Program-made: the position numbers and the translations under genes
Source: an uncultured Candidatus Peribacteria bacterium
Lineage (GTDB): Bacteria; Patescibacteriota; Gracilibacteria; Peribacterales; Peribacteraceae
Length of the DNA stretch: 64,000 nucleotides
Assembly (NCBI GenBank): GCA_964460475.1
Contig: CAYWPP010000004.1
Coordinates: 22,977-86,976 of the forward strand
Reading direction: 5' to 3'
Shown: one piece after another, positions 1-38,997 of the stretch
How positions within the stretch are numbered: the first letter of the stretch is position 1
Layout: every line of letters begins with the position of its first letter
The notes under the pieces: generated by a model
Database searches by the model: none
Seen by the model: the letters and a program-made list of their open reading frames with translations, nothing else
What the model was told of the DNA's origin: nothing

Positions 1-2
1 AA

Positions 3-1109: not shown

Positions 1110-1121
1110 TTCTAAATAACC

Positions 1122-2279
1122 ATGCCTGATTCCTACCACATTCGCAGCACTTCCAGACAGTCAGCCGTCATACAAGACCGGGTGCTATCCGAAAACTCGA
1201 CTACGCGCAAAGTGTTGCGTCCGGAAGTTGTTAACAATCCGGGTGACGCATCTGCGAGTGTCAAAATTACTCTTGTATACCAAAGAAAGAGCCAGAGTGG
1301 AGAATGGGAAGACACACAGGCTATCAGAATGAATACACTACGTGCTGGTGAAGGCGTGAAGCTACATCTGGACACGCGGGAAACGAAGAAGCTGCATGAA
1401 GAACTTCAAAACTTATATGCCATTGGCGATGGTGGTGTACAGCTTGGAGAGCGTCGTTTGGTAGTAGCGGCAGAAGACCAAGTGATACTTGACGATCCGC
1501 AAAGGGCAGAAGCTATCAGAAAGTTGCTGGCACAGAGATATCCCGAAGAGGTATGGGATGATTTGATTGAAACTGATCCTGACCTTGTAACGAGACTTGC
1601 TTACGCACGGGTTCACACTAAAAGAAGCGAAGCACTGCAAGAGTTTGAACAAAGCTTGCAGTCTGAACAGCCCGAAGGTTACTGGCAGGAATTCTTTGAA
1701 AAGAATACGTGGATTTTCGGTTATGGGCTTGATTATCGGTTTTTAAACCATATACAAAGTCAGCCTAATTACGGAGGTGGAGATGTTGCTGGCAGAACAG
1801 GACACGAAGGCGACTTTTTACATCATTCGGACGGTAACATAAAATTCACCGTACTTGTTGAGATCAAAAAGCCTGATTCGCAGCTTGTTTCCGAATACAG
1901 AAGTGGCATTAACAAGCCCAGTGCTGAGCTATCAGGCGGCGTTTCACAGTTGCAAGTTTGCTGTAGGCAATGGGAGTTGGAAGGTGCGCCGAGCCAACAT
2001 AACCGAGAAATGGAATCGAGCCAGATATATACAATCAGCCCTCAGGGCATCCTGATCGTAGGCAACCTGGATCAGTTGAGTGATATTTCAGCCAGAAACT
2101 CGTTCGAGCTCTTTCGCCGCAGCCTTGCCAATCCTGAAATTCTGACATTCGACGAGTTGCTGCAAAGAGCCCGTTTTATTGTGGAGCATGGCAATGCACA
2201 GGAAGAATCTAGCAATACTACATCAGTTGCTGAAGAATCAGTAACGCCAGAAATAAACGTGGAAAAATTACCGTTTTAG
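1122..2279 (+). CDS. Shedu-like (DUF4263) PD-(D/E)xK nuclease with an unrecognised N-terminal domain
   Basis: The C-terminal half has WQEFFEKNTWIFGYG, then GDFLHH...KFTVLVEIKKP (a D...ExK core), then QLQ, ILIVGN and FELFRRSL..EILTFDELL. This order is typical of DUF4263/SduA. It starts 12 nt after the methylase gene and is AT-rich. Confidence 0.6.
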   Translation: MPDSYHIRSTSRQSAVIQDRVLSENSTTRKVLRPEVVNNPGDASASVKITLVYQRKSQSGEWEDTQAIRMNTLRAGEGVKLHLDTRETKKLHEELQNLYAIGDGGVQLGERRLVVAAEDQVILDDPQRAEAIRKLLAQRYPEEVWDDLIETDPDLVTRLAYARVHTKRSEALQEFEQSLQSEQPEGYWQEFFEKNTWIFGYGLDYRFLNHIQSQPNYGGGDVAGRTGHEGDFLHHSDGNIKFTVLVEIKKPDSQLVSEYRSGINKPSAELSGGVSQLQVCCRQWELEGAPSQHNREMESSQIYTISPQGILIVGNLDQLSDISARNSFELFRRSLANPEILTFDELLQRARFIVEHGNAQEESSNTTSVAEESVTPEINVEKLPF

Positions 2280-9972: not shown

Positions 9973-10347
9973 AGAAGAGGAGGGAGAACGGACGTTGTGC
10001 TTACTCACACGTATCAGGCCGGAGAGCATTTTTCCCGTTTCATCCGTGGAACGAAGCAAGGGCCTGGCCTCTTCCTTTCCGGCAAGTTGCAATCTCAAAG
10101 CAATAAGGAGGAGCGCCTTCAGTTCGGTACATTCACCTCTCGCAATCGTGTAGACACGTGCTTTGTCACGATACGTAAATCTTCCGAAGCCTTCAGCGAT
10201 GTTCGCGACAATGCTCACCGCTGATCTTCTCATCTGCGATGTAAGTCCAAAACGCTCATCGGGTGGAAATTTTTTTTTGAGAGCATAGATTCCCTCGACT
10301 ACATTCATTGCCATACGCCACACATGGAGATCTTCAAATGAGGCCAT
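9964..10347 (-). CDS. four-helix-bundle protein (23S rRNA intervening-sequence protein family)
   Basis: Family hallmarks FEDLHVWRMAMNVV, FGLTSQMRRSAVSIVANIAEGFGR and ARGECTELK. The 3' end runs into the repeat arm. Confidence 0.9.
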   Translation of the reverse strand: MASFEDLHVWRMAMNVVEGIYALKKKFPPDERFGLTSQMRRSAVSIVANIAEGFGRFTYRDKARVYTIARGECTELKALLLIALRLQLAGKEEARPLLRSTDETGKMLSGLIRVSKHNVRSPSSSPP

Positions 10348-10353
10348 AGGGAG

Positions 10354-10359
10354 ATACTA
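10354..10359 (-). promoter_or_regulatory. -10 hexamer TAGTAT, 6 nt upstream of ATG 10347
   Basis: The minus strand reads TTGTAGTATCTCCCT-ATG. Confidence 0.4.
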
Positions 10360-10431
10360 CAAAAAATCGACCGATCCACATGCTTTCCTACGCCGGTGTA
10401 ATGCATTTCCATCCTCACAAAACCCCACATA

Positions 10432-10505
10432 CCTAGTCTCTACTCTCTCATCCCTAGTATCTAATCTCTCATCCCTAACATCTAATCCCTACCCCCCCTA
10501 AACCG
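10432..10505. repeat. right arm of hairpin cassette 1 (inverted heptad repeats)
   Basis: CCTAGTCTC...CTAATCTCTCATCCCTAACATCTAATCCCTACCCCCCCTA is the reverse-complement flavour of the left arm. Confidence 0.85.
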
Positions 10506-10589
10506 CCCTCTGCTAAGGTGTCACATCCTTAACTGACCGTCTCCGGCAAACAAGAAAAGAAATGGCGAAGGAAAACGGACGTATGTATC

Positions 10590-11888
10590 ATGACAGAAAT
10601 GCTCAGGAGGACATTCTTCGCCGCCATACTCACGATTGTTGCACTCTGCGTGCTGACGGCTGGAGTGCTCCGTCTTTTTACCCGTGATTCCGATGGAGGA
10701 ACATCGGCATTCGTCGGCTCTCTCCTGTTCCGTCCTGATCCGGGGAAAATGTCCGGACATGCATTCGTGGTTGCCTCTCTTGCGCGGGATGATCAATTGG
10801 ATCTTCTTTCGGAGGAGCATGGCATTGTTAAATGTCCGGCTTTTCTGCAGGAGGGATATCGATGGAGTACTCCGCAAGACATTCTTGAAGAAGGCATGCG
10901 TTTGTACGAGTTCAGCGAAAACTACACGGAAAAAAGCGGGGTATGGACAGGAAAGCGATATGGATACGGAGAGCCTTCGCAACAGACCATTTCGCGCTTT
11001 CAACCGGGAAAAACCTACTATGTGTCAGGAGCTGCCGGTTCTTCCTTCAATTGCCAGACCGAAGATAACGAATCGGGCGGCTCTTCATCGTCTCTCTCAT
11101 CACCCTCTTCATCTTCCTCTTCCTCTTCCCACTCTTCATCGACTCCTTCTTCTCCACCACCATTGTCAACGGAATGCATCATTGTGTCCGCCGCTTCCGA
11201 CGACGGGAAAATGCCTCCGCTCTTCACCGATATCCCCTGCGAGAACCAAGCGATAAGCGGTACGCAATTTTCCTTCCAATTCACAAGCGAAAACGCGGGC
11301 GGCGAAGAAGTCGCATTCCACGTCTTTCCCCTCGATCCGTTTCTTGACGTAAACAAAGACGGATATGTGACGATAGCCGATATACGATTCATCTTTTCAC
11401 GCATAAACATACCTGGTGCATACCATCCTGCCGCCGATCTCAATATCGAAGGACCTGACGGGTACATTTCGCCCATTGATGCATTGATATGGAGTAACTA
11501 TGCACGCAGCGCTCTTCCGACAGGCATGGTGCTGCATCCCTCTTCAGGCCTTCTGACATGGACACCCACCACCGAACAAGAAGGCACACACTATGTTGCC
11601 GTCAATATGTACACTCCCGCTCCGGATTATCGCAGTCCGTATTCCTCGGCGGTAATCAGGATTGCCGTCGCGGAAAATGACGGTACAACGATTCCGCCGG
11701 CATCATCGTCGTCTTCGTCTTTCTCACTCTCCTCCTTCTCCTCGTCTTTCTCCTCTTCCTCCTCAGCACCGGCTCTCTGTGGAAACGGAATGATCGAAGC
11801 GGGCGAGGAATGCGATGACGGAAACGCCGTCGACGGAGACGGCTGTTTCTCCACCTGCGTTTTCATGTTGCCTCCCACGCAACCATGA
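10590..11888 (+). CDS. secreted or anchored multidomain protein: novel Cys-bounded N-domain, Ser-rich linkers, dockerin-like and He_PIG/Ig-like segments, C-terminal Myxococcus-type Cys-rich repeat
   Basis: N-terminal signal anchor. Poly-Ser linkers. DVNKDGYVTIADIRFIF (dockerin/EF-hand-like). LPTGMVLHPSSGLLTWTPT (putative Ig). CGNGMIEAGEECDDGNAVDGDGC (Cys-rich repeat). ATGA overlap with the next gene. Confidence 0.7.
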   Translation: MTEMLRRTFFAAILTIVALCVLTAGVLRLFTRDSDGGTSAFVGSLLFRPDPGKMSGHAFVVASLARDDQLDLLSEEHGIVKCPAFLQEGYRWSTPQDILEEGMRLYEFSENYTEKSGVWTGKRYGYGEPSQQTISRFQPGKTYYVSGAAGSSFNCQTEDNESGGSSSSLSSPSSSSSSSSHSSSTPSSPPPLSTECIIVSAASDDGKMPPLFTDIPCENQAISGTQFSFQFTSENAGGEEVAFHVFPLDPFLDVNKDGYVTIADIRFIFSRINIPGAYHPAADLNIEGPDGYISPIDALIWSNYARSALPTGMVLHPSSGLLTWTPTTEQEGTHYVAVNMYTPAPDYRSPYSSAVIRIAVAENDGTTIPPASSSSSSFSLSSFSSSFSSSSSAPALCGNGMIEAGEECDDGNAVDGDGCFSTCVFMLPPTQP

Positions 11889-14800
11889 TGTCCACGCAAG
11901 TCCGCTCCCGGCTGCCTTTCATTGTCATATCGATCGCCATCGGACTGACAATCTTGCTTGCATTGAGCGTGTTCCCACAACAGGGAACGAATATTCTCGG
12001 CACCCTCACCGCTCCTCCAAATCCGCATATCGTACGCACCGTAAACAACGAAAACTTCCTGCCAAACATGGTGCTGTCACACGGAGAAAGTCGCTATATT
12101 CCCAAGAATATTCATACGTTTATCACATGTCCCGCCTCGCCGTTGCCACCCGGATACCGTTGGAGCACTCCGCAAGAATATGCGTCATCGCATCTTCTCA
12201 TGTATGAATTTTCTCCGGATGCCGATCAGGAAAAAAGCATAATGAATCAGGATTGGCCCGGTTTGCGCTACGGCTACGCGTCTTTCGAAGATACGCTCGG
12301 TTCGTTGCGGTCTGACCGCACATACTACGTATATGCATCGGAAGAAATCTTCTCTTTCCAGTGCAGCAGGCAAGTGAATGACTCGTGTACGAACATCTAT
12401 TTCGCAGATGCATTGAATAACGCTCTGCATGTGATTGGTACCGATGGAATCACGGTGCAAGACATCCCTCTGGAAATACCCGCGACGGAAAGACTCTCAG
12501 CGAGCGCCGTCGATTTGGAACGGAATACTCTGTATTGGGGCCATAAGAACACGGTATACAAATCTTCATTACTCACAGGAGAGACTGCATTCGTAGCATT
12601 ATTGCCAAACGCCGCTGTCATCAGGGAAATACATGCGGACCCGCGCCTTGATATGCTGCATATCCATGCAGCGGAAGTCGATCCGAGCGGAAGTCCAACC
12701 GGCAATGAATTGGCATACGAAATACGGAATGCATCCGCGTCTGCAACTGCACATGAAATGGGACAAGGCTTCCGCGCGGTTGATGCAAAAAACCGCATCG
12801 GTTACATGCTGACAAAAAATGCCAATAGCATGGAACTGCGGGCCGTGCACTTGGATACATTTACCGAGAACGTTCTTTACTCTTTAAGCGAGACAACCGG
12901 TCTGACCGTGCAGAGGGTCGCGGCATCGGAAGGAAAAGTGTATTGGCTCAACGTGCCGCTTATCGAGCCTTCGGCATTAAAGCCCACATTTTGGCGCATG
13001 GATAGTGAAGGAGGTGATCCGGAACAATTGTTTGCAATTCATTCCCCGAAAAATGCCATTCGTTCCTTCACGACGGACGGCATCAACGAAAAAGTGTACT
13101 GGACTCAACAACAGTCGAATATCTCTCGAGTATACCGTGCGAACATGGACGGCTCGGAAGCGGAACAAGTCTTTTCGGGACAATCGTGGATCTTCTCGGT
13201 TCAGGCGATCGACTCTTGTTGGTCTTCTGCCGTCAACCCCGTTGTGCATGCCGACGAAATATGGGCAAGATTTAGCGGAACGACGATAATGCTGGGCTCG
13301 GCATCGGATCCTTCGATGAGGAAGTATGATTTCTCGGATCTTATGGGCGGATTTGCGGTGAAAGAGTTGACCATTGATACGTTGAATCAACGCATGTTCT
13401 GGCTTTCGGAAAATGATTATCTCTTCGGAGCATATCTGGACGGTTCCGACGCCTTTGTCATAAGCCACGGCCCGTTGATTCAAGAAACATCGATCACGGT
13501 AGATCCGGTCGGCAAGCGACTGTACTCTACTCAAAGAGATACACGCATCGTAAGCAGGGCATACGATGCAACCGAATTCCGTGTCGAGTATGAAACGGGC
13601 AATGCTCTTCTTTTTGTTTCCGAACTCGTCGCTGACGGACCGGGTCGTAAGATATTTTTCATCGAAGCACTCCCTCCTCCGGGTAGGCAGGAAGCAATTG
13701 GCATTCTGGATTTGAACGGAGGAAGCAAGCGTACGCTTCCCGGATCGGCATCCAACTTCCCCCTCTCTTACTTGACCGTCGATAGTGAGGAGGAAAGGCT
13801 CTATTGGAAGAACGGAAGACTTGCAACGTATGTGGATCTTGCGACTGAATCACCGATAGAAACTCTGGATATTCCGGACGGAGCGGCCTTTGCCGTTCGT
13901 GGCGATCTTTTCCATTGGCTGGACTGGCATTATCGCCTGTGGCAGGGAAAAATCCTTGCCGGAAAGGTTCTAGAAAGAATAATGGTGCTCGACGAATCGT
14001 TTGCACGATTCCCTGCCGTGGCTATAGGCCAAGTACAACATGTGTCAAGGAGTACGGAATTATCGGTCGAACTGTCAGCTCCGGACTTCACCGTTCCGAC
14101 ACGATCCGATGAGTACAGGATAATACTGAAGAATACGGGGGACTACGTTGCGCTGAATCCGAAAATCACCTTGGAAATTCCCGATACAGTTACCCCAATC
14201 AACCCGTGTCCATCGACACAGAATGCTCAGGGGAGAACGCAGATGACTTGCGACCTATCGATCCTCGGCGCCCAGCAGGAATCAGTGATCACATTCATAA
14301 TGAATGCATCGGCCGACACGTCCTGTGATTCCCCTCTCTCTTTCCTTCTTCGTGCCGAAGCCGACAATGCCACGACTCAATCTTCGGTCGTGGAAGTTCC
14401 AATGGAATGCCAGCAACTGGAACTTGCCGTGAACGGTCCATCTCAACTGACTCACGAAACAAACATTTTGTATTCTTTCTCGCTCAGGAATAACGGACCG
14501 AAAACGACAAATGAGACTCGCGTCGTCAACTACATTCCGGATCAACTTGAATTCCTTCCGGAAGAAAGTGCTGCGGAATGCGTCGTCGGATCTTTAGCTG
14601 GAAGCAGGGTTCTGACATGCACTTATGACAGTCTTTCACCTCTTGAGCAAATCACGAGCGTGCTGCATTTTCGGGTGCGTTATCATCGCGATGTGTATCC
14701 ATGCGGGGAAATACAGAATCCTTTCGTGGCCGAAGCGGCAGATGCCCCTCCCGTGGAATCGGTGCATATCACGAATCTTCTCTGTCCGGCGGAACCTGAT

Positions 14801-24189: not shown

Positions 24190-26592
24190 TCACGGTCGCT
24201 CTTCCTCATGCCGCAACGCGACGTGCAGGGCAGAAAGTTGCGCCGCGGAGAGAATCGTCAGGAGCGACTCGTCATCGGCATTCCGGAGGGAAGAGATCGT
24301 AGGATGCATCTTCTGCAACTTCTTCTTCGTCGCGGGACCGATACCGGGGATCGTATCGAGCACCGACCGGCGACCCGCGGCAAGACCCTTCTTCTCGCGG
24401 AGCGAGTTCGCGAAACGATGCGCTTCGTCACGCAGACGACGAAGCAGGAAGAGCGCCGGCGCGTCCTTGGGGAAATCGACGGGGTGACTGTTCCCCGGCA
24501 CGAAGAGCTCCTCTTCCCTCTTCGCGAGCGCCGCGACGGGAATGGAGAGCGACAGGTAATCGAGAACCTCGACGGCGACGCCGAGTTGGCCCTTTCCCCC
24601 GTCGATCAGCAGAAGATCGGGGCGCTGCGTGAAGGAAGGGTCCGGGGCATTGGACTTCGCTTGGTACATCATGGCGAGGCCGCGCGGTTGTGCCGCATCG
24701 GCTTTATGATGCGTATCCAACCGCTCGCGAAGCACGGACGGCTCGGTGATAACGTGTTGAAAACCGAGCGACGCGTAGTACTGTTCCGACGCAACGTCGA
24801 TCGTGACGTACACTTTCCCCTTCTTGACGCGGCGCAGCATGAGGCGCGCGAGCAATCTGCCGAGTCCCTTGCCCCTGAGGGAAGCATGAACCCACAGGGA
24901 TGTGAGCTCGGTGACACTCTTGGGATGCGCAAAGAGACGGACGCACCCGACGATCTCGTCGCCTCTGCGCGCGACGAGAAGATCCGCCGGCTTCAAATCG
25001 GCGGCCTCGAATATCTTCTCCTCTTTCAGAATTTCCTTCACGCGGGCAACGTCCGCCTTGCGCGCCTTGCCGATGACGACTCCTTCATCTTTCCATCGTT
25101 GCTGCTCGGTTTTCAGATCGAGGGACAGGTACGCGAGTCTGCGTCGGAGTACCTCCCGCAAGGAGGCGTAGTCATCGATGTCCCCTTCCTTCAGGGACCG
25201 GATCGTGAACGAACGGTAGTGGTCGCGACGCGGCTTACCGTCGATCATCACGGTCATGCTTCCAACGGTCTCGGTGCCGCCGAGATGCGAGATGTCGTAC
25301 CCCTCGATGCGACGCGGCGGGGCCGACAGTTCGAGAGCCTCCTGCAGTCCGGTGAGCGCGGCATCGACGCGGCGGGCATCCGCCTCCCACTTCGCCTCGC
25401 TCTGCTCGGCCTTCCACCGTGCGTTCTTTTCCGCAAGAAGAAGGAGAGAGGATTTTTTGCCGCGCTGCGGAACGCGGATGGTCGTTTTCTTCCCGCGCCT
25501 TTCGTTCAGAAGTCGCACGAGAGCGTCGGCTTCGCCGGGTTCATCCGAGAGAATGATCTGATCGGGAAGATCCGAAGCGGCGAGATAGTACTGCGGCAGA
25601 AACTGATCGAGCACTTCGGCGACGCTGTCGGCATTTCCTTGCAGGGAAAAATTCTCCTCGGCGAGGAGTTTGCCGTCGCGCTGGCGAAACAGGACGACCG
25701 TCGCGCGGTTCGTATGCAGCGCGACGCCGATGATGTCGGCGTCATCGCCGGACGTATCGGACGCGAGCTGCTTTTCGTTCATGGCACGCAGCGATTGCAG
25801 CTGATTGCGCAGCTCCGCGGCCCGCTCGAATTTTCTCTCTTCCGCGGCTTGCTTCATCTTCGCCTCCAGCATTCTCTCGGCATCGTCACGTTTGCCGGAC
25901 AGAAACGCAATGACGCCGTCGATGGCACGCTCGCGATACTGTGCCGGAGTCACTTTGCCGACGCACGGCGCACAGCACTGCTTGATGTGGTGATCGAGGC
26001 ACGGCGTCGGACGGTCGCGGTGCAGGCAGGTAACGGCCAGAGGAATCGTCGCCTCGGATGAGGGTTCCTTCGGCATGATCTCCATGGTGCACGTGCGAAA
26101 CGGAAAAAGTTTGCGGAGGAACCCCAGCGTCGACCGCGCCTGCTCTGCGCTCGTCTTCGGACCGAAGTACAGCGCGCCGTCGTCTTCCATTTTCCTGACG
26201 ATATCGATCCGTGGATACGGATCCTTCATCGTGATGCGTACGTACACGTAGTGCTTGTCGTCCTTCATCATGATGTTGTACTTGGGTTTGAGTTCTTTGA
26301 TGAGATTGGTTTCGAGGACGATTGCTTCCAGATCGGAATTCACCACGGTCGTATCCACGTCGCGGATTTGGCGCACCATCATGTCTTTCCATGGCGAGTG
26401 TTTCTGCCCCGGCTGTACGTAACTCCTGAGCCTGTTGCGCAGATTCTTCGCCTTGCCGACGTAGAGCACCGCGCCGTCCTTATCGAGCCACTTGTAGATG
26501 CCGGGGCTCTGCGGAGCCTGCGCGATGCGTTGACGGAGAATCGCAAGCGCATCCTCCTGCTTCTTGCCGACACGTTTCTTTTTGGAAACCAT
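24190..26592 (-). CDS. uvrC: excinuclease ABC subunit C with an inserted GNAT-like domain
   Basis: GIY-YIG (GIYKWLDKDGAVLYVGKAKNLRNRL). UVR motif (ERKFERAAELRNQLQSL). C-terminal nuclease (EGYDISHLGG ... LLLIDGGKGQL). HhH (IPGIGPATKKKL). See the finding for the insertion. Confidence 0.9.
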   Translation of the reverse strand: MVSKKKRVGKKQEDALAILRQRIAQAPQSPGIYKWLDKDGAVLYVGKAKNLRNRLRSYVQPGQKHSPWKDMMVRQIRDVDTTVVNSDLEAIVLETNLIKELKPKYNIMMKDDKHYVYVRITMKDPYPRIDIVRKMEDDGALYFGPKTSAEQARSTLGFLRKLFPFRTCTMEIMPKEPSSEATIPLAVTCLHRDRPTPCLDHHIKQCCAPCVGKVTPAQYRERAIDGVIAFLSGKRDDAERMLEAKMKQAAEERKFERAAELRNQLQSLRAMNEKQLASDTSGDDADIIGVALHTNRATVVLFRQRDGKLLAEENFSLQGNADSVAEVLDQFLPQYYLAASDLPDQIILSDEPGEADALVRLLNERRGKKTTIRVPQRGKKSSLLLLAEKNARWKAEQSEAKWEADARRVDAALTGLQEALELSAPPRRIEGYDISHLGGTETVGSMTVMIDGKPRRDHYRSFTIRSLKEGDIDDYASLREVLRRRLAYLSLDLKTEQQRWKDEGVVIGKARKADVARVKEILKEEKIFEAADLKPADLLVARRGDEIVGCVRLFAHPKSVTELTSLWVHASLRGKGLGRLLARLMLRRVKKGKVYVTIDVASEQYYASLGFQHVITEPSVLRERLDTHHKADAAQPRGLAMMYQAKSNAPDPSFTQRPDLLLIDGGKGQLGVAVEVLDYLSLSIPVAALAKREEELFVPGNSHPVDFPKDAPALFLLRRLRDEAHRFANSLREKKGLAAGRRSVLDTIPGIGPATKKKLQKMHPTISSLRNADDESLLTILSAAQLSALHVALRHEEERP

Positions 26593-29567: not shown

Positions 29568-31970
29568 TCACTTCTTACGCTCGTTCTTCTTGCGCTCTTT
29601 CGGCCGCAGGAAGTCGGGTAGCAGAATGGGCGGAACGATGCCGGGGAGCGATTCGATGACGGGAAGATCGTTGAGCGCAAGACGTCCCACGTACAGACGC
29701 CGCAAATCCCCGCCGCTGTCGGCAAACGCGGCGATATCCCGGTATCCACGGAAGTACGCAACGTCCTTGGTGAAGGCGCCGGGCTGCGCGGTGTCGCCCA
29801 TTCCCCGCTTGAGCGTCCAGGCTTTCCGCAAAGCTTTCTCCGGAGAGAAGCCGAGTTCTTCCAGATATTCCCGCGTCTCCCGGAAACCGTGGTGGAGCGC
29901 GTACTCGACGCCGAGCGTGCCGCGGGGGGCCCAGTATCGCTTATCATGCGAATCGGGAAGCACGCGATTCTGCAGATACACCGCAAGCCCCTCTTGCGTA
30001 TCGAGGTATCCGGCACAACCGACCTGCAGCAATTGGTAGGGCTGATGCCCGGCATTCTCCGATGTCAGGACGTGCGCTTCGATCTCGTGCGCGATGAGGG
30101 CGTCGACGTGCACCGGCTCGAACATCGCGTCCTCCCGCAGAAAGACGCTGCGGCCTCCCACCGCACAATCCGCGGAAAGCTGCGCTTTGATCCGCACCTC
30201 CCAGTCATGCAATCCGTAGCGTTCCAGCACCGCGGCGAATCGTTTCTGCACTTTCTGTGCCGAGAGGAGATCTTTCTCGCGCGGAGGCAGATCGCATGCG
30301 TCGCGATGTCGGAGCGCGCGCTCCGCCTCTCCGATAAGATCGGGAGTAGGAACGCCGTACAGATCCGTCGAGAAATGCGTGAATGCGTCATTATTGCCGC
30401 GTGACTCCAGGAGATCGAGACGCAGCAGCAGCTCTCGCTTCTTCTTACCGAGCAGAGTGCCGAGCGGCGTGTCATCGGTACGGACTGCGCGCACTCTCTC
30501 GCGTGTTTCCGGGAAATCGAGTTCCGTCGGCGCGTAGGAGAAGTGGGGCTCATAGGCGCAATCCGTGCGAAGGCGCGCGAGGTGTGTCGACGCTTCCAGC
30601 GGGCGCAACGCTTTCAGGAGCGGAATTTCACGATGCAACTCGGCAAGCTGCCTGTCCGCGCTGTGCAGATCGGCTTTGATTTTCGTTCTCGGTCCGGCGA
30701 TGCTCCGGGGCTCCCGCCTGTTCGGATCGATGAGGAATCCCTTCAGATCGCGCCTGCCGAGCGACACGCGCACCGGCGAATCGATGTGCTTGCTGACGAT
30801 AATCGTCTGGATTTTCTTGCCGCCAAGCAGGAACCGCACGCGATACGTGCCCTCCGTTTCGTTCTCCGGTTCCAGAACGCCGCGCTCCAGAAGCTCATCC
30901 ACGAGATCGGGGGCGAAAGCCGTTCGCTCATGTTTGGCATGGATGTGGCAGGCGATTTCGATGTTCTCATCCTCATCGGGAATGGTGATGGTTTCCGTCA
31001 GTCCCAGCGTGGGCATGTCGACCTGCGATGCGCGCGGCGCGGACGTCTGGCCGAAGAGTTCCTTGCCGAGCAGCACGCCTTTCTCCGGAGTCGGCACACT
31101 GAGGCCTGCAACACGTTCCAGACGGGAGCGGAGCGGAGCGAGATTCGCAATCTGCACGCTGAGTCCAGCACGGGCATTGACCTCCAGAAGCTTGGGGCCA
31201 CCCTCTTCATCAATCGTCATGTCCACCGCGAGATACCCGATATTCGTCACCTGCTGAATACGGGAACATGCGAGGAGGATGTCGTCCCAGAAGGGAATCT
31301 TCATGCCGGCGAACTCTCCGCCGTGCGGCAGCGCCTGAATGGTCTTGTTCCGCTGCGCCGCGAACGTGGTGGCGCCCTTCGCGAGATCGATGCCGATGCC
31401 GATACCGCCCAAATGCATGTTTGCCTTGCCGCCGCTCTCGGCCGTGGGAATACGCAGCATGGCCATAATCGGCACGAGGTTGAAGACCACGATGCGAAGG
31501 TCCGGCAATCCGGCGGGGCGGAAACGCGCGAAGCAGGAGTGGGGAATGAGAAGTTCCTCGAAGAACGCCGTATCGTTGCGTCCGTTCACGGAAAATTTTC
31601 CGTCGAGAATATCCTCGATGTGCTCGAAGAGGTTTTGCCGCGTCACCGGATGTTTTCCCTTCTCAAGAAACATTCCTTTCTTCTTTCCGCGCAGGATACG
31701 AATCCCCTCGCCGCCGTACCCGTAGTTCGGCTTCAGCACGCACTCGTCGGGCAGCTTGGAAAAATCGAACGCGCGGAGTTCGTCGCGCGAGGAGATGGTC
31801 GCATACACCTTCGGCACGGGGATGCCGCGCGTCGCCAAAAACAGCTTCGTACGCAACTTGTCATCGGCGAACGCCGTCACCGAACGCGGATTGAAGGGTT
31901 TGACGTAGAGGAGATTGCGGGCGTTGAGACCGAGGACGCCGCGCGTGGAGAGGAACGGGAGAACGGCCAT
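29568..31970 (-). CDS. triple-fusion protein: RimK-related ATP-grasp (alpha-L-glutamate ligase-like), RimB-like (retropepsin-like 'Zn-protease') module, DUF1704 / QEGLA-motif carboxypeptidase-like domain
   Basis: N-terminus: LGLNARNLLYVKPFNPRS..ADDKLRTKLFL and EVNARAGL (ATP-grasp). Middle: ...RVSLGRRDLKGFLIDPNR (RimB-like end). C-terminus: HEIEAHV ... DTQEGLAVY (QEGLA motif). Confidence 0.8.
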   Translation of the reverse strand: MAVLPFLSTRGVLGLNARNLLYVKPFNPRSVTAFADDKLRTKLFLATRGIPVPKVYATISSRDELRAFDFSKLPDECVLKPNYGYGGEGIRILRGKKKGMFLEKGKHPVTRQNLFEHIEDILDGKFSVNGRNDTAFFEELLIPHSCFARFRPAGLPDLRIVVFNLVPIMAMLRIPTAESGGKANMHLGGIGIGIDLAKGATTFAAQRNKTIQALPHGGEFAGMKIPFWDDILLACSRIQQVTNIGYLAVDMTIDEEGGPKLLEVNARAGLSVQIANLAPLRSRLERVAGLSVPTPEKGVLLGKELFGQTSAPRASQVDMPTLGLTETITIPDEDENIEIACHIHAKHERTAFAPDLVDELLERGVLEPENETEGTYRVRFLLGGKKIQTIIVSKHIDSPVRVSLGRRDLKGFLIDPNRREPRSIAGPRTKIKADLHSADRQLAELHREIPLLKALRPLEASTHLARLRTDCAYEPHFSYAPTELDFPETRERVRAVRTDDTPLGTLLGKKKRELLLRLDLLESRGNNDAFTHFSTDLYGVPTPDLIGEAERALRHRDACDLPPREKDLLSAQKVQKRFAAVLERYGLHDWEVRIKAQLSADCAVGGRSVFLREDAMFEPVHVDALIAHEIEAHVLTSENAGHQPYQLLQVGCAGYLDTQEGLAVYLQNRVLPDSHDKRYWAPRGTLGVEYALHHGFRETREYLEELGFSPEKALRKAWTLKRGMGDTAQPGAFTKDVAYFRGYRDIAAFADSGGDLRRLYVGRLALNDLPVIESLPGIVPPILLPDFLRPKERKKNERKK

Positions 31971-31978
31971 GAGGGATC

Positions 31979-31987
31979 AGTATAGCA
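31979..31987 (-). promoter_or_regulatory. extended -10 TGCTATACT, 8 nt upstream of ATG 31970
   Basis: The minus strand reads CTCTGCTATACTGATCCCTC-ATG. The same 12-mer CTCTGCTATACT occurs upstream of the gene at 40650. Confidence 0.5.
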
Positions 31988-32056
31988 GAGAAAAAGTGCT
32001 TTCCTCGGAACCCTACAAGCTCACAACGTTGCAGGCGGTAGCGTGCAGGCGACGAG

Positions 32057-33568
32057 TCATTCCTGGAGATGCGAGAACACTTCGCGGAAGCGGAAGTACT
32101 CGATGAGTCGCAGACCGGAGTAGCGGCCGAGGAGGAAGTTGAGCGGCAGCGTCATGAGGATGCTCTCGGGGTACGCGAGGATGAACGACTGCAACATGGG
32201 AAGACGCACGATGAAGACGCAGAGCAGCGCGGCGAGAACGGTTTCGACGATGCCGTAGAGAGCGGACAGCATGCCCTCGGTCCCTTCGAGCGTCAGGAAG
32301 CTTTCCGAGAGCGTCGACATGATGAGCAGGACGAAAATCGTATCCGGCGCCAGCACGATGCCGAATGACGCACCGAGCGCAAGCGCGAGAAGGAGGATGA
32401 TGCTCACGACGCTCAGGACGATGGCGATTTTGGGGATGTAGAGAATACGCCACCGCTTCATGACTTTGCGGGAGACGTAACTGCCGAAGAGAATGAAGGA
32501 GAGGAACACGATGCCGATGGGCCAGCCGAGCGCCAAGAAGCTGAGTGCGATGATCGACGGCGTGTAGAGACCGAAGGTCGTCACGCCGATCACCTGCTTT
32601 AAGAACGCGAGGATCGTCGCGATGACGGGAAGCATGAGCAGAAGAATCACGGTCTGACTGGAAATGCCGTGCATCAACATGTAGTTCACGAGGAGCGACA
32701 GCACGTTCCACGGACGCACGGAGAGCGAAGACGCATCGAGCGCCACCGTCTCGATGTCGCGCTGCTGCAGCGTGTCGATGAAGTTCGTGATGTCGGTCGC
32801 CGAGAGGAGCGGATTGATCGATTCGTTGCGCGTCAGCAGGAGATTCGCGGGCTGCATGACGGAAAACGGACCGCGCACGGCACGGCCCAACGTGTGCAGA
32901 CTCCCCTCGCTGATGACGACGAGCGAGAGATTCTGCAGCGTCTGCAGGCGCTCGGCATCGCTACGCGAGGCGCGCATGAGCGCCTGCATGCCTGCGATGG
33001 GATCGCCCGTCCACAGCACGACCGCGTCGGCGTTCGCAAGCCTGTCGAACTGATCGCCCAGAAGCTGCACCAGAGACTCTTCGACACCGAGCGGAATGGC
33101 CGACACGGGAGGCTTGAGTACCTGCAGGAAGACGCCTTGCTCCGCGGCGGTTTCCTGATGCACGGAGAGCTTGTCCGACGAGACGCTCTGGTCGGCGATG
33201 ACGACGATTTTGCGCGTGAAAACGGTAATCGTGCGCTCCGTCTCGGACTCGAACGTTTCCCCGTCGATCTCCTGTCTGACGACGAGGCGGATGACGAACT
33301 CGCCCGGTTCCTCGGGCGTGAACAGCGCTTCCACGGAACGGCTGATCGACTGGGTAAACTGGTCCTGATGCCATTCGTACGTGATTGCTCCGCTTGCGGT
33401 TCTACTCGCCGACGCGTCGAGAACGATCGTGCGTCCCACCTGCACTTCGGACGGTCCCGAGATAACTGCGCGCGGCACGTCCGGCGGCGCATCTTGCGCC
33501 ACGGCAAGAAAAGACGGAACAAGGAACGTTCCGAGCGTGCCCGCGAGAACGGCAAGCGAGCGCGTCAC
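32057..33568 (-). CDS. PKD-like ectodomain fused to the 7TM module usually found fused to inactive transglutaminases
   Basis: Signal peptide. PKD-like segment (ISGPSEVQVGRTIVLDASAS...YEW). C-terminal 7 TM helices ending LLGRYSGLRLIEYFRF. GTG start overlaps the hpf stop (GTGA). Confidence 0.7.
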   Translation of the reverse strand: MTRSLAVLAGTLGTFLVPSFLAVAQDAPPDVPRAVISGPSEVQVGRTIVLDASASRTASGAITYEWHQDQFTQSISRSVEALFTPEEPGEFVIRLVVRQEIDGETFESETERTITVFTRKIVVIADQSVSSDKLSVHQETAAEQGVFLQVLKPPVSAIPLGVEESLVQLLGDQFDRLANADAVVLWTGDPIAGMQALMRASRSDAERLQTLQNLSLVVISEGSLHTLGRAVRGPFSVMQPANLLLTRNESINPLLSATDITNFIDTLQQRDIETVALDASSLSVRPWNVLSLLVNYMLMHGISSQTVILLLMLPVIATILAFLKQVIGVTTFGLYTPSIIALSFLALGWPIGIVFLSFILFGSYVSRKVMKRWRILYIPKIAIVLSVVSIILLLALALGASFGIVLAPDTIFVLLIMSTLSESFLTLEGTEGMLSALYGIVETVLAALLCVFIVRLPMLQSFILAYPESILMTLPLNFLLGRYSGLRLIEYFRFREVFSHLQE

Positions 33569-34064: not shown

Positions 34065-35546
34065 ATGTATAATACTAAGAAATTCACATCCACTCCTATG
34101 CCTGAAGGTTTTGAGTCCTTATCGGAACACGCCGGTGACGTGCGTGACGAACTGGAGCGTCTGCGCGCGCAGATAGCTGCGAACGAGGCGGCGGACGCAC
34201 TGCAGGAAGAAGAGAGCGATGAGCCTCGGGAGACTGACGAAGCGTCAACGGAGAGCGACGAACAGGTCCGCAAGATTCTCACGGAAGGCCTGACGCCCGC
34301 GGTTAAGAAGTACGTCGAAGCCGTACAGGGCATTGAGGTGGAATCTTCGCATCTTGCGCGGAACGAGAGGTTCGCGAAGTTTCTGGAGATCAAAAATGCG
34401 CTCGTTGACGAAGCATTGTCGGGCATTGATCTCGATCCCGCTGCACTCGTAAGTGGCCTCACCGAAGGAAGAGTGACGCTGGACAGCCTGCGGCAGATGA
34501 CCGTCACGGACACGAATGACGAGAAGGAAGCACTGCGATCGGTGATGACGCTCGGCGAAAAAGTTCGCGAAGGCCTCGGTTCCTTCCTGGAAAAAAGCGG
34601 CCTCGGCAGAATGGCGGAAGGATTCGGCATGGATGTCTCTTCCCTCTTCCCGTTGCTTATCCCCCTTCTGGCCGGAAAGCTGGATGCAATGGGCGCCACA
34701 CCCGGCATGACCTTCTTCCGCAATGCTGCGTTCAAGATGCGCGCATACGAAGCTCGTGAACAGGCGAAAGCCGAAGGGTACGATCGTGAGACGATCAGCG
34801 CGGCAATGCCCGCGTGGGAAACGGCGTACAAAGAGTGGATGAAGAATCCGCCGGAATCCGCAGGGCCGCCGCCGGACTTTTCCTCGATGATCGCACAGCA
34901 GGCAGCGGAGACGGCACAGCAGGAACAGGAACGCGTACAGACGGAAGCACGCGAAGAGCTTGCCTCCGCATTCAGGGAATACGCGACGACGCACGGACTC
35001 CTTCCCGGCACATCCGCCATCGAAGTTACCGAGAGCGAAGCGACTCTGGAACGGAAGGACGGAGGTATCACGGCACGTCTGCCGGAAGCCGCATTCGCAA
35101 AGCAGGAAGACGGAAGCTTCACGCTCACGGCGCAGGGCGAAGCGCTCCGAAATCTGTTGCCCGTCATCGCGGAACACGAGAACGTGAAAACGATCACGCC
35201 GTCGGACACATTGGAAGTGTCGGGAGGTGAACAGGGCATCGACGTGAAGGCTTCGATCGACGGTACGAACATGACGCAAGAACGTCTGGCACACGCCCTT
35301 ACGTTCCTGCCGAGCACGCGCATCCGCTCGGTGAAACTCGACGCGCTGAATGCCGGCACGAACGCCGGCTTCGCGAAGCTGGAAAACGGAACGCTCTTCG
35401 TGAACTACAAAGCGCTCGACGGTGATATGAATCAGGCGGCGCTGAAAGAGAAGGTGGAGAATTTCGCCGTGATCAGCGAAACCGACGTGCATCTGTGGGA
35501 GCACGACGGAAGAGAATGGAATGAACATTCCCCCGCCCAAGCATGA
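34065..35546 (+). CDS. hypothetical acidic protein (493 aa)
   Basis: Coding-like codon usage, whereas the two long antisense ORFs are Ser/Arg/Cys-rich junk. ATGA overlap with the next ORF. No domain recognised. Confidence 0.6.
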   Translation: MYNTKKFTSTPMPEGFESLSEHAGDVRDELERLRAQIAANEAADALQEEESDEPRETDEASTESDEQVRKILTEGLTPAVKKYVEAVQGIEVESSHLARNERFAKFLEIKNALVDEALSGIDLDPAALVSGLTEGRVTLDSLRQMTVTDTNDEKEALRSVMTLGEKVREGLGSFLEKSGLGRMAEGFGMDVSSLFPLLIPLLAGKLDAMGATPGMTFFRNAAFKMRAYEAREQAKAEGYDRETISAAMPAWETAYKEWMKNPPESAGPPPDFSSMIAQQAAETAQQEQERVQTEAREELASAFREYATTHGLLPGTSAIEVTESEATLERKDGGITARLPEAAFAKQEDGSFTLTAQGEALRNLLPVIAEHENVKTITPSDTLEVSGGEQGIDVKASIDGTNMTQERLAHALTFLPSTRIRSVKLDALNAGTNAGFAKLENGTLFVNYKALDGDMNQAALKEKVENFAVISETDVHLWEHDGREWNEHSPAQA

Positions 35547-35788
35547 CGCATGAGCGATTGCCAACGTCAGAAGTGCCGGCATCGGACGTCGTGGAGACAG
35601 CCTCGATGCGCACACGCGACAAAATCTTTCGCGCTATCGGTAATACCGTGGAAATCACGACGGACACGGCCGTCTTCGGAGCGAAAGCGACGGGCTACTC
35701 CCTTGGGAAAACACTCCAGGGAATAGGTCAGAGCATCTACGGCCTTCTCAAAGGCATCACGGACAAGGAATTCCCCCACTCCCGATGA
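35543..35788 (+). CDS. hypothetical small protein (81 aa)
   Basis: ATGA overlaps at both ends. Gly/Thr-rich central segment. Confidence 0.5.
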   Translation: MTHERLPTSEVPASDVVETASMRTRDKIFRAIGNTVEITTDTAVFGAKATGYSLGKTLQGIGQSIYGLLKGITDKEFPHSR

Positions 35789-38700
35789 GAAACAATCCTG
35801 CGGCACAACAGGAAGCGGCCGTGTTCCTGGAAGCGCTCCGCGCCGAGGAACCGGTGAATGCGCGCGATCTTCTTGATAAGCACAAAGATGCGCCCGACAT
35901 TCTCGATGCGGTCGGCGAAGAACTTTCGAAGCTCGACAAAAAGCAGCAGGAGTTGATCTCTCTCAATCTGCGGAACCTGGAAAAGCAGATCAGCGCGACG
36001 GAACAAAATGAAGAGACATCGCGATTGAAGGCACAGGTGGAAACATGGAGAAAGTCATTGGAGACGGCACACGTATCGGTATCGGCCGAAGCACGTGCGA
36101 GCGAAACGACACAGACGGAAGAAACCAACGAGGAATTACCGAGCACGCCTCCTCAAGGATTCGTTGACACCATGAAAGTGTACGCGTCGAAAACGAAGGA
36201 ATGGGCCAAGGAACAGCTCGATGTCACAAAGTGGTCATCCACAAAGAAGGCAACGGTTGCGACTCTGACATTGGGAGCGGCGGCACTGCTTGCCTATCTT
36301 GCCTTCCGTAAATCAAAGGCAGAAGGAGGAGAACGAGAAAAAGAACGCAACGGTTTTCCAAAATGGCTCCTGTGGGTACCGGTACTTGGCATTGCGAGTT
36401 GGGGAGCATATAAGCTCTATCAGCACTCGCAATCCATCAATGACATCACTGAGAACCTCCAAAGCACATCAGAGAATATTGCAGGCGGTGCAGGTGCAAT
36501 AAGGGACATAGCAACTGGAGCTGGTACAGAACTCGCATCTACCGGCGCAGAAGTGGCTGACACTCTCTACCGAGATGGAAAATTTTGGATTGATCTTTTC
36601 AGCAAAGACGATCTATCAGAAGCGATGCAACACTTCATCGTATCTGGCGCCATTCTTGCAGTAGAAAATGGCATGACTGTTCTTCATGTTGCTAGCAGAA
36701 CAATTGTCCTTCCAGGGCTCTCGATAGAAAAATTCCTCAAGTGGGGTGCAACGGGAGAAAAAGACGAGGACATATGGCTTGTGTATGGGCAGGCAGGAGC
36801 TGCTTACTTTATGGGAAAAACCGCCTTTAATCTTCTCGCAAGAGGTCATTTGCAAATCCCACTTACCAGGAAAGACGCACTTTTCACTGCATTAAAAATT
36901 GGAAGCGGGCCTCTTGATATGGTTGCAGATGCTCTCAGCATCGGTGGGACTGCCGCTAGGGGAGCTCATGGAAGAGAGGCGGTATACATTCGATATGCTC
37001 GACAAAACATTGTCGCCAAAGGAATGAGGAAATATCGAATGTGGAGATTAAGTGGTAAGCCAGAAGGTATTCAAAGAGGTCTCAAGTATTGGAAGAGCCT
37101 TATGCGAGACTGCGACATCATGCAAATGTTCAAAGGCGAAGGTAAGCTCTTTTCAGAGCAGGAGTATGAAAAAGCAGTCAATGCAAGGAAGGCATTGGCA
37201 AATAAGATTGCAAAGGCTCTCAACAGACTTAGCCCGAAAGACTTGGAAAAATCAGGTCTAAAAGAATTAAAAAAATACAGCAATTTGGAGGTTGCCGAAT
37301 TTGAAAAATGGACCGATAAGTACATCAATGATCTCATTCCTTCCCAAGCCAAAAACACTGTCACTACAAGTGCTGCTACATCTCCCCATATTCCCGGGGA
37401 ATTGACTGAAGCATCTCCAGTCCGCAAGGCCGCAGGTGCGGAACGCATGACTCCGGAGCCTGCTCCACGTACGTCCGCTCCATCCTCGGAAGGTCCGCGG
37501 CTGTATGATCCCGACAATCTGCTGGATAAAGAAGCGCGAACAGCTTCGGATGCCGTGACGGAAAGTGCCGACGCCATGCCCCGGACGACAGATGAACTCT
37601 TCAGTGCCATTGCGGATGCACGCAACGCGGGCGACGATGCAAGGCTCGCGAAGTTGATGGAAAGTCCGCTCCTCCGGGAAACGGCAAAAAACGGAAACAA
37701 GGAAGCACAGGCATTGCTGCGAGCCAGGACGTTCGCGGCGCGCGCTCTCTCCAGAGGAAAGGAAACCGCAAGAATCGCGGGGAAAGTGGCGGGACCCGCA
37801 CTCGCGGGATTCGGCATCCTGCTCGATACGTATCTGGTCATCGATAACGAAGTGCAGCTGGCGGAAGCCCGAAAGAAGCAAGATGCCCTTGAAATCGACA
37901 GGCTGGAAGCAAGAGGACGGAGCTTGAAAGCCGCGGGTATCGGCGGCGTCGCCACTCTTGCGCTTGCCGGTCCTGCCGGACTCGTCGTCGGGGCGGCGGT
38001 AGCTGCCGCATCCGTCTACACCGAAGCCGTCTACGCATCCGTGGAAGAATGGAACAGAACCGCCGAATCGTGGAAGAAACTCGATACCGCCACGCTCCTG
38101 CAGGAAATCGAACGGTACGTCGGCGAAGTGAGTGCGGCGAACGTCACCGCATCGCCCGGGGTGCTCGCGGGAAATCTGGAAGGAGTGAACGCGGTGAACA
38201 GCGATGTCCGCTCCGAGATCTATGCCGCCTATCTCGTCAGATCCACATTGCTTCCGAAAATGCATGCCGAAACGGACGCGCAGTACGCGGACCGCGTGAA
38301 GCTCGCGGTGAGAAGTAAGCTCGCCTACATCAGCAACGTGACGGGCCGATCATTCGACAGAGTCACGACGGACACGTTACGCAATGCGGATGCCTACGCG
38401 GAGCTCGTTGCCCTCAAGGAAAAACGCAGGAGCATGAATCTCCCCCTGACCGTCACGTTCCCGTCGATCGGCGGCGACATGACCATCGATCTGGAGAAAG
38501 TCGACGTCACGCGAACCGAGCGGGGCGAACTCTGGAAGATGCTCAATGAGTACGAGAAATCCATCAAGCCGATGATGACGGCAATCGAGATGCAAGCCGC
38601 GTTCGAAGCGGGCCGGGATGCCGGAATCGACTATCGTGAAAAGACGAAAGCCGCCCTGCACGAAGCGGTACTTGCGGAAATCCGCCATGATGTTCATCGT

Positions 38701-38997
38701 GCGGAACAATCGCTGAGAAACGTGAATTTCAGCGGCATCGCCGACGAGCACGAACGTACGGTTGTACGCATGCTCATCGCGGCCGAGCAGGAGAAAAGCG
38801 TCGCAACACTGACGGAGCTTGTGGGAACTGAAACATTCACGGGGGAACAATTTGCGAAGACGATCGATACGCTGCGATCGAACATTCAAGGCATGACGGC
38901 CAATGCGCAAACGACATACGACAATGCTCCCGATTCCATGAAGAAACAAACATACGGAGAAGAGCAGTCCAACATCCTGATCGCGTTGACGTCCTAG
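35785..38997 (+). CDS. hypothetical large membrane protein (1070 aa, coiled-coil regions plus two TM clusters)
   Basis: TM pairs at about residues 160-215 and 690-760, with long helical Glu/Lys/Ala-rich stretches. No catalytic motif recognised. Confidence 0.65.
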   Translation: MRNNPAAQQEAAVFLEALRAEEPVNARDLLDKHKDAPDILDAVGEELSKLDKKQQELISLNLRNLEKQISATEQNEETSRLKAQVETWRKSLETAHVSVSAEARASETTQTEETNEELPSTPPQGFVDTMKVYASKTKEWAKEQLDVTKWSSTKKATVATLTLGAAALLAYLAFRKSKAEGGEREKERNGFPKWLLWVPVLGIASWGAYKLYQHSQSINDITENLQSTSENIAGGAGAIRDIATGAGTELASTGAEVADTLYRDGKFWIDLFSKDDLSEAMQHFIVSGAILAVENGMTVLHVASRTIVLPGLSIEKFLKWGATGEKDEDIWLVYGQAGAAYFMGKTAFNLLARGHLQIPLTRKDALFTALKIGSGPLDMVADALSIGGTAARGAHGREAVYIRYARQNIVAKGMRKYRMWRLSGKPEGIQRGLKYWKSLMRDCDIMQMFKGEGKLFSEQEYEKAVNARKALANKIAKALNRLSPKDLEKSGLKELKKYSNLEVAEFEKWTDKYINDLIPSQAKNTVTTSAATSPHIPGELTEASPVRKAAGAERMTPEPAPRTSAPSSEGPRLYDPDNLLDKEARTASDAVTESADAMPRTTDELFSAIADARNAGDDARLAKLMESPLLRETAKNGNKEAQALLRARTFAARALSRGKETARIAGKVAGPALAGFGILLDTYLVIDNEVQLAEARKKQDALEIDRLEARGRSLKAAGIGGVATLALAGPAGLVVGAAVAAASVYTEAVYASVEEWNRTAESWKKLDTATLLQEIERYVGEVSAANVTASPGVLAGNLEGVNAVNSDVRSEIYAAYLVRSTLLPKMHAETDAQYADRVKLAVRSKLAYISNVTGRSFDRVTTDTLRNADAYAELVALKEKRRSMNLPLTVTFPSIGGDMTIDLEKVDVTRTERGELWKMLNEYEKSIKPMMTAIEMQAAFEAGRDAGIDYREKTKAALHEAVLAEIRHDVHRAEQSLRNVNFSGIADEHERTVVRMLIAAEQEKSVATLTELVGTETFTGEQFAKTIDTLRSNIQGMTANAQTTYDNAPDSMKKQTYGEEQSNILIALTS

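Follow-up and report, generated by a model that had tools for sequence, protein, structure and literature searches.

RimK is known to polyglutamylate the C-terminus of RpsF, and RimB to cleave poly-Glu (PMC11957051). The Rlo system of Pseudomonas, whose genetic description dates from 2025, consists of a secreted retropepsin (RloA), a seven-transmembrane (7TM) protein with an inactive transglutaminase (RloB) and a cytoplasmic ATP-grasp protein (RloC) (PMC11957051). RloA cleaves poly-Glu in vitro, RloB is 96% proteobacterial, and a triple protease mutant shows hypo-osmotic, biofilm and morphology defects that are suppressed by deletion of rloB or rloC (PMC11957051). In the MATCAP/TMCP family, a metal is bound by an HExxxH motif together with the Glu of an EEG motif, and the acidic tails of tubulin lose first Tyr and then Glu to these enzymes (PMC10499314). 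Here, we describe a 64,000-nucleotide (nt) stretch of DNA (the window; contig CAYWPP010000004.1, positions 22,977 to 86,976 of the forward strand) from an uncultured Candidatus Peribacteria bacterium, in which a single protein of 800 amino acids (aa) joins an ATP-grasp ligase of the RloC type, a degenerate retropepsin-like domain and a MATCAP-like carboxypeptidase. The protein (P0001; 29568..31970, minus strand) was delimited by open reading frame (ORF) calling, hidden Markov models (HMMs) and full-length homologues, and its source genome is a 1.10-Mb Peregrinibacteria/Peribacteria metagenome-assembled genome (MAG) that is 96% complete.

The ORF runs uninterrupted from an ATG start through 800 codons, and it contains every motif quoted in an earlier reading that was made from the letters alone (the sequence-only reading). 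That reading had proposed three modules in one protein that are separate genes elsewhere, and Pfam, NCBIfam, fold comparison and split relatives all bear this out; HMM searches for its three families recovered the ATP-grasp and QEGLA families, but left the middle module without a match. The AlphaFold model of the full-length protein has a predicted local distance difference test score (pLDDT) of 81, and its top Protein Data Bank (PDB) match in Foldseek is human MATCAP (7z5g, E 3e-9, template modelling (TM) score on the target 0.62), followed by the ATP-grasp ligases ArgX, LysX and RimK. Homologues are currently labelled in databases either as 'alpha-L-glutamate ligase-like / TIGR02421' or as 'tyrosine/phenylalanine carboxypeptidase domain-containing', and our literature search, in which the matches for DUF1704, PF08014 and QEGLA were mostly noise from Plasmodium gene identifiers, turned up no publication on either the fusion or the Patescibacteria system.

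The N-terminal module is a RloC/TIGR02291-type ATP-grasp ligase (PF14397; residues 7-306, 31053..31952; this and all other features of the operon lie on the minus strand), and Pfam, NCBIfam and alignment agree with the 'alpha-L-glutamate ligase-like' assignment that had been made for it. PF14397 (ATPgrasp_ST) matches residues 18-287 with an E of 7.6e-60 and 202.9 bits, above the gathering cut-off of 31.4. TIGR02291 matches residues 7-306 (E 5.3e-73) over the full model (7-313 of 317), yet its 245.8 bits lie below the equivalog cut-off of 314.2 and leave the protein outside the curated equivalog. The ligase is co-linear over its full length with that of a Legionella rloABC operon (38% identity, E 1e-62), and RimK proper matches it weakly (PF08443, E 0.016; TIGR00768, 42 bits vs a 143-bit cut-off). 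In an alignment of 43 full-length homologues, on which all conservation figures given here are based, K80, D250, E263, N265 and R267 are invariant (43/43), and by analogy with RimK-type enzymes these residues would bind nucleotide and Mg.

The QEGLA/DUF1704 domain recognised earlier at the C-terminus was likewise recovered, as a MATCAP/DUF1704 metallocarboxypeptidase domain (residues 439-793, 29592..30656) on which Pfam, NCBIfam, Foldseek and alignment agree. PF08014 matches residues 469-775 (E 1.9e-50, 172.3 bits, above the gathering cut-off of 27), and TIGR02421 matches residues 439-793 (E 3.7e-60), spanning the whole model despite a score, 204.1 bits, that is below the equivalog cut-off of 338.65. 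The HExxxH metal-binding/catalytic motif is present as HEIEAH (H628, E629 and H633; 30072..30089), and the QEGLA motif (29982..29996) supplies E660, the predicted third metal ligand and the equivalent of the human MATCAP EEG; H628, E629, H633 and Q659-E660-G661 are all invariant (43/43). In a direct alignment with KIAA0895L, HEIEAH pairs with HEIGTH, TQEGLA with TEEGLA, and KRGMGDTAQPGAFTKD with KRGQTDTSLPGCFSKD, at what is overall a distant relationship to human MATCAP (phmmer E 1e-3, ~17% identity in structural alignment). Around two stand-alone MATCAP homologues, P0160 and P0175, the neighbouring genes are unrelated, and therefore not every prokaryotic MATCAP is linked to a ligase.

The middle module (residues 321-418, 30717..31010), which ends in GRRDLKGFLIDP, had been read as RimB-like, and this claim holds: fold and homology through an intermediate protein place it with the retropepsins, although no PF05618 HMM matches it directly. 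Residues ~310-435 have no Pfam match within the whole protein, nor as an isolated 158-aa piece at E<=10, and no NCBIfam match. A 30-sequence profile searched against PDB sequences gave nothing significant, only chance matches to spermidine acetyltransferases at E~1, and the PF05618 HMM has no match in the whole genome, so that no other PF05618 gene is present. The module keeps a pattern of its own among the 43 homologues (LGxxETIxIxGxGxxIEVPCxIAPxxERTxFS...YRVKFTLGGKKIQTLV...IGRRDLxGFLIDP). Modelled alone, it reaches a pLDDT of 90.6, and its top 20 Foldseek matches in the PDB (E 1e-4 to 1e-3, TM 0.5-0.6) are all clan-AA retropepsin-like domains, among them Ddi1 RVP, Pseudomonas RloA (9g58) and RloA2 (9g59), and Legionella Lpg0085/DUF785 (2pma).

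The intermediate, P0176, was reached via a stand-alone MATCAP homologue. It is a 441-aa protein that combines ATPgrasp_ST with a PF05618 domain (35.2 bits vs a cut-off of 27) in which the active site, AKIDTGAYRS, is intact. Residues 6-418 of the fusion are co-linear with P0176 in BLASTP (37% identity, E 7e-83), and a profile of the middle module aligns with the PF05618 domain of P0176 with an HHalign probability of 95.4% (E 1.8e-8). Against stand-alone Legionella RloA, HHalign was not significant (probability 11%). The middle module is a derivative of the PF05618 lineage, but since its C-terminal motif alone aligns with stand-alone RloA, we do not file it as a PF05618 member.

The catalytic Asp of DTGA aligns to His344 of the fusion in both the BLASTP and the HHalign alignments, and HAKH (residues 344-347, 30930..30941) stands in the place of DTGA. 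The same column holds A25, S10, D3, Q2, H1 and Y1 among the 43 homologues. Because the catalytic Asp is His here and Ala or Ser in most of the family, the module is, as judged from its residues, catalytically dead, as the sequence-only reading had suspected. In addition, the fusion lacks a hairpin of ~14 residues with the 'ERP' arginine, and it has SKH where the 'DR' arginine would be. These two arginines would correspond, as mapped by numbering offset only, to R114 and R137 of RloA, which coordinate poly-Glu (PMC11957051). We also considered that the dead domain could be a poly-Glu 'reader', but with the flap hairpin and both putative arginine equivalents lost this role is unsupported, and a scaffold is more likely than a substrate reader.

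The operon has a fourth, near-invariant component that the sequence-only reading did not contain, the PF14402 7TM gene. It lies at 32057..33568, separated from the fusion gene by a spacer of 86 nt (31971..32056), and encodes a RloB-like protein of 503 aa with a signal peptide, a PKD-like and an unassigned ectodomain and the PF14402 7TM region. Pfam detected only PF14402 ('7TM usually fused to inactive transglutaminase') and a weak PKD_4 match in this protein; the PF14400 inactive-transglutaminase ectodomain was not detected. Since both flanking genes, a DUF3048 gene downstream and a 493-aa ORF of no assigned family upstream, are on the opposite strand, the pair forms a two-gene operon. Among 80 related genome loci, 77 have the 7TM gene directly upstream, as do 39 of 40 loci from across the phylum, and in many relatives the pair lies without a spacer, abutting or overlapping. 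The signal peptide, the seven hydrophobic segments and the Arg/Lys-rich loops point to an N-out, C-in topology, which would leave the C-terminal tail in the cytoplasm and within reach of the fusion enzyme. In our tail survey, 89 of 116 7TM partners end in E (81 of them in EE), vs a background of 11%. Within the clade of the window all 77 partners do so (...HLQE, ...HLQEE or ...QEEE), including the window's own ...SHLQE, whose final Q-E (32060..32065) is a candidate ligase acceptor. The encoded terminal Glu residues number 1 to 4, as with RpsF tails.

The same architecture is found in >1,348 proteins of ~780-840 aa, and triple fusions occur in the family of the window, in its class and in four further families (33-55% identity). 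Counting split, two-domain and triple-fused forms together, 98 of 301 evenly sampled Patescibacteria genomes carry the system, and these forms make up an evolutionary series inside a single phylum. A two-domain protein of ligase and retropepsin (430-490 aa) is found in many lineages, some of which have a separate, adjacent MATCAP gene (L083, L106, L107, L124, L126 and L127) that is absent in others. In the L082/L083 operon the order is 7TM_transglut (220 aa), P0176 (441 aa), MATCAP (370 aa) and a second ATP-grasp (517 aa); the latter, P0178 (7110..8663 in L083), has no homologue that we could find in the source genome. Nearly all two-domain proteins retain the DTG motif, as do the triple fusions of families f6, f45 and f48; it is lost in the family of the window, in f3, f8, f5, f25 and f31, and also at L124, a split f60 locus that has NTG.

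Several loci met in this survey are recorded here in their own right. Downstream of the core genes, G142 (L095, 6934..9674) has a second small grasp-like ORF and then a 575-aa protein that includes a MATCAP-like region. Two full-length fusion matches contain in-frame stops, G287:C16:5779-8166 (two TAG and one TAA) and G273:C8:17860-20241 (two TAA), for which pseudogene decay, sequencing error and recoding are all conceivable. A MAG labelled Kiritimatiellales (L006, JAIPIN010000005.1) carries a 56%-identical fusion with a typical Peribacteria 7TM neighbour, and is probably a case of a mis-binned contig rather than of lateral transfer; L074 is labelled Gracilibacteria.

It had been suggested that the three families are neighbours in proteobacteria. 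This holds in part: in annotated replicons they make up two separate neighbourhoods rather than one, and our survey found all three families adjacent only in the Patescibacteria relatives with a split MATCAP gene listed above. The first neighbourhood, of the rloABC type, combines PF05618, PF14400/PF14402 and PF14397 on a plasmid of Legionella adelaidensis, and is also present in Pseudomonas (PMC11957051). On Legionella adelaidensis plasmid 5 (L128, 5921..8217), the rloABC-type operon is followed, convergently, by two genes for C1-family (papain-like) peptidases, which may be another alternative trimming activity. The second neighbourhood, seen in Aminobacter and Sinorhizobium, consists of an N-formylglutamate amidohydrolase, a QEGLA protein of ~620 aa and a GshB-like ATP-grasp. 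Published tables echo the QEGLA/ATP-grasp pairing in VV2_1203/1204 of Vibrio vulnificus, and show the Photobacterium pair RS17020/RS17025 to be co-induced at low salinity. The Patescibacteria operons merge elements of both proteobacterial neighbourhoods.

We propose, with confidence only slightly above even, that the genes at 33568..32057 and 31970..29568 together make up a compact, membrane-associated Rlo variant, one that writes and trims Glu tails or oligo-Glu peptides. The RloC-type amidoligase would add alpha-linked amino acids to a C-terminal carboxylate, and from the analogy with RimK we infer that glutamate is the most likely of these. The dead retropepsin-like domain would descend from a fused poly-Glu protease of the RimB/RloA type and would now probably serve as a structural or dimerisation scaffold. 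The MATCAP-type HExxxH/QEG metallocarboxypeptidase would remove C-terminal residues from acidic tails, having taken over the trimming role from the retropepsin, and together with the ligase it would set the length of the Glu tail or oligo-Glu peptide. The 7TM partner would be the platform and, in this clade, a plausible acceptor through its cytoplasmic ...Q-E(-E) end. The sequence-only reading had argued from the fusion that the modules act on one substrate; because the fusion is accompanied by conserved adjacency in split relatives, our results support this in the form of one shared pathway. A further step would make the ...Q-E(-E) end the physiological substrate, with a variable Glu tail that is written and erased as a bacterial 'tail code' and by which the 7TM protein is gated or passes on a signal. 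The pairing of ATP-grasp writer and MATCAP eraser would then be older than the eukaryotic cycle of tubulin tyrosination/glutamylation, and may be its ancestor. This step is tentative and in our opinion rather doubtful.

Across the lineages, the correlations fit this proposal and at the same time show its limits. Loss of the retropepsin Asp is seen at family level only where MATCAP is present (6/12 vs 0/7, Fisher p=0.044), a pattern consistent with MATCAP taking over trimming, the Glu tail occurs only with MATCAP (7/12 vs 0/7, p=0.017), and the tail correlates with loss of the Asp (p=0.0095), all in 19 lineages, which are few and not fully independent. This small sample is one of several points that weigh against the proposal. 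In the triple-fusion families f45 and f31 the 7TM protein ends in KSA, KSS or KSH, in two-domain systems it ends in basic residues, and Legionella RloB ends in ...AKARS. With these endings, a terminal Glu is not universal among Rlo systems, and the tail of the 7TM protein is thereby ruled out as the substrate of Rlo-like systems in general. The Pfam name of PF14397, 'sugar-transfer associated ATP-grasp', hints at non-protein acceptors. Moreover, the Pseudomonas protease acts outside the cytoplasm (PMC11957051), so that the product of the Pseudomonas system is probably exported, which misfits a cytoplasmic tail as substrate.

Some of these points lead to other explanations. The system could serve the homeostasis of free oligo- or poly-alpha-glutamate, or of a small peptide, that the ligase polymerises and MATCAP depolymerises, either to buffer cytoplasmic glutamate and osmolarity or to supply an export route through the 7TM protein; the 7TM tail would then do no more than dock the enzyme or prime it. 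In favour of this, free poly-alpha-Glu is a product of RimK, and RloA cuts poly-E whether it is free or internal. Rlo mutants lose their hypo-osmotic sensitivity when rloB or rloC is lost as well, which hints at a toxic product that the cell would normally export and break down. In Photobacterium, low salinity induces RimK, the QEGLA gene and the ATP-grasp gene beside it 27- to 52-fold. The whole system is also kept in lineages without the Glu tail. However, a free polymer leaves unexplained why the Glu tail is confined to lineages that contain MATCAP, and a ligase fused to a hydrolase of its own product would run a futile cycle unless regulated, and we regard this explanation as unlikely.

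Quite improbable, in our judgement, is a role in modifying cell-envelope precursors, in which the ATP-grasp would add an amino acid to a precursor of the glycan, lipid-linked or peptidoglycan type, the peptide stem would be edited by the carboxypeptidase, and the 7TM protein would translocate or anchor the product. The family name of PF14397 would suit such a role, as would the cell-shape and envelope phenotypes of Rlo mutants (PMC11957051), the large extracytoplasmic domain of the 7TM partner and a transglycosylase/transpeptidase gene near the split operon in L083. However, no glycosyltransferase or Mur-type gene is linked to the operon within the window, in structure the ligase comes closest to enzymes that ligate to protein or peptide C-termini (RimK, LysX and ArgX), and the relatives of the other two modules, MATCAP and RimB/RloA, act on alpha-peptide tails. 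As for an assembly or annotation artefact, in which a frameshift or an overlooked stop had merged two or three adjacent genes, its probability is practically negligible and we reject it on comparative grounds: the full-length homologues come from independent assemblies, the best genome loci are full length in 80 of 80 cases, triple fusions occur in at least nine families, the linkers are co-linear and the frame is uninterrupted. The proposal of a compact Rlo variant for Glu tails or oligo-Glu peptides is the one that we retain.

Other features of the window call for a brief description. Upstream of the operon and divergent from it lie the 493-aa ORF (34065..35546, plus strand) and an ORF of 1070 aa (35785..38997, plus strand), neither of which Pfam matches at E<=0.001; hydrophobic segments occur inside the 1070-aa protein, along with long stretches that are coiled or acidic. 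Unrelated to the fusion is a UvrC homologue that is also 800 aa long (24190..26592, minus strand). A GNAT acetyltransferase domain (PF00583, residues ~532-611) interrupts its RNase-H endonuclease domain, and Pfam matches the latter in two pieces; such an insertion is unusual in a core repair protein. The G+C content is 42-51% at 1..2000, 10001..14000 and 36001..38000, vs 55-62% elsewhere in the window.

The fusion physically ties a RloC-type ligase to a MATCAP-type carboxypeptidase of the acidic-tail family, and can be taken as a 'Rosetta stone' for the Rlo system. Its family points to the replacement of retropepsin trimming by metallopeptidase trimming, and it extends the functional context of the MATCAP family beyond tubulin. 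A specific candidate acceptor is at hand in the Glu tail carried by the 7TM partner, and this, if true, would be the first concrete substrate hypothesis for the Rlo system. The sampled Patescibacteria genomes are ~1 Mb in size, with little dispensable content. Since about one third of them nevertheless keep the system, it is probably important for the envelope or stress physiology of Patescibacteria.

Among the described systems, RloABC shares with the Patescibacteria operon a RloC-type ATP-grasp encoded directly after a PF14402 7TM protein and a retropepsin module of the PF05618 lineage that is part of the same unit. Unlike RloA, which is separate, secreted and active, this module lies here inside a cytoplasmic ligase and appears dead, and a MATCAP-type metallopeptidase has been added to the fusion. 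The membrane partners differ as well, as Legionella RloB has PF14400 together with PF14402 and lacks the terminal Glu, whereas the partner described here has PKD-like and unassigned ectodomains with PF14402 and ends in Glu. The cluster of N-formylglutamate amidohydrolase and QEGLA resembles our locus in the genetic coupling of a QEGLA/MATCAP-family peptidase to an ATP-grasp ligase, but its ATP-grasp is of the GshB-like PF02955/PF02951 type, it has neither a 7TM partner nor a retropepsin module, and its proteins are separate, with an N-terminal extension of ~270 aa on the QEGLA protein.

RimK and RimB also combine an ATP-grasp ligase with a retropepsin-like trimming protease, both cytoplasmic and acting on a C-terminal Glu-Glu tail, and by fold RimK is one of the top matches of the fusion. 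However, the ligase described here belongs to PF14397/TIGR02291, trimming would fall to a metallocarboxypeptidase, the enzyme is linked to the membrane via its 7TM partner, and there is no sign that RpsF, the target of RimK, is targeted by the fusion. With the eukaryotic MATCAP enzymes TMCP1-2 (KIAA0895L/KIAA0895), the fusion shares the peptidase fold and the HExxxH, (E/Q)EG and KRG..D...PG.F.KD motifs. Compared with the cycle formed by MATCAP and the TTL/TTLL enzymes, the Patescibacteria protein places both activities in one chain, involves no tubulin and uses a ligase that is RimK/RloC-like and not TTL-like, but the logic of an ATP-grasp 'writer' and a MATCAP 'eraser' on acidic C-terminal tails would be common to both.

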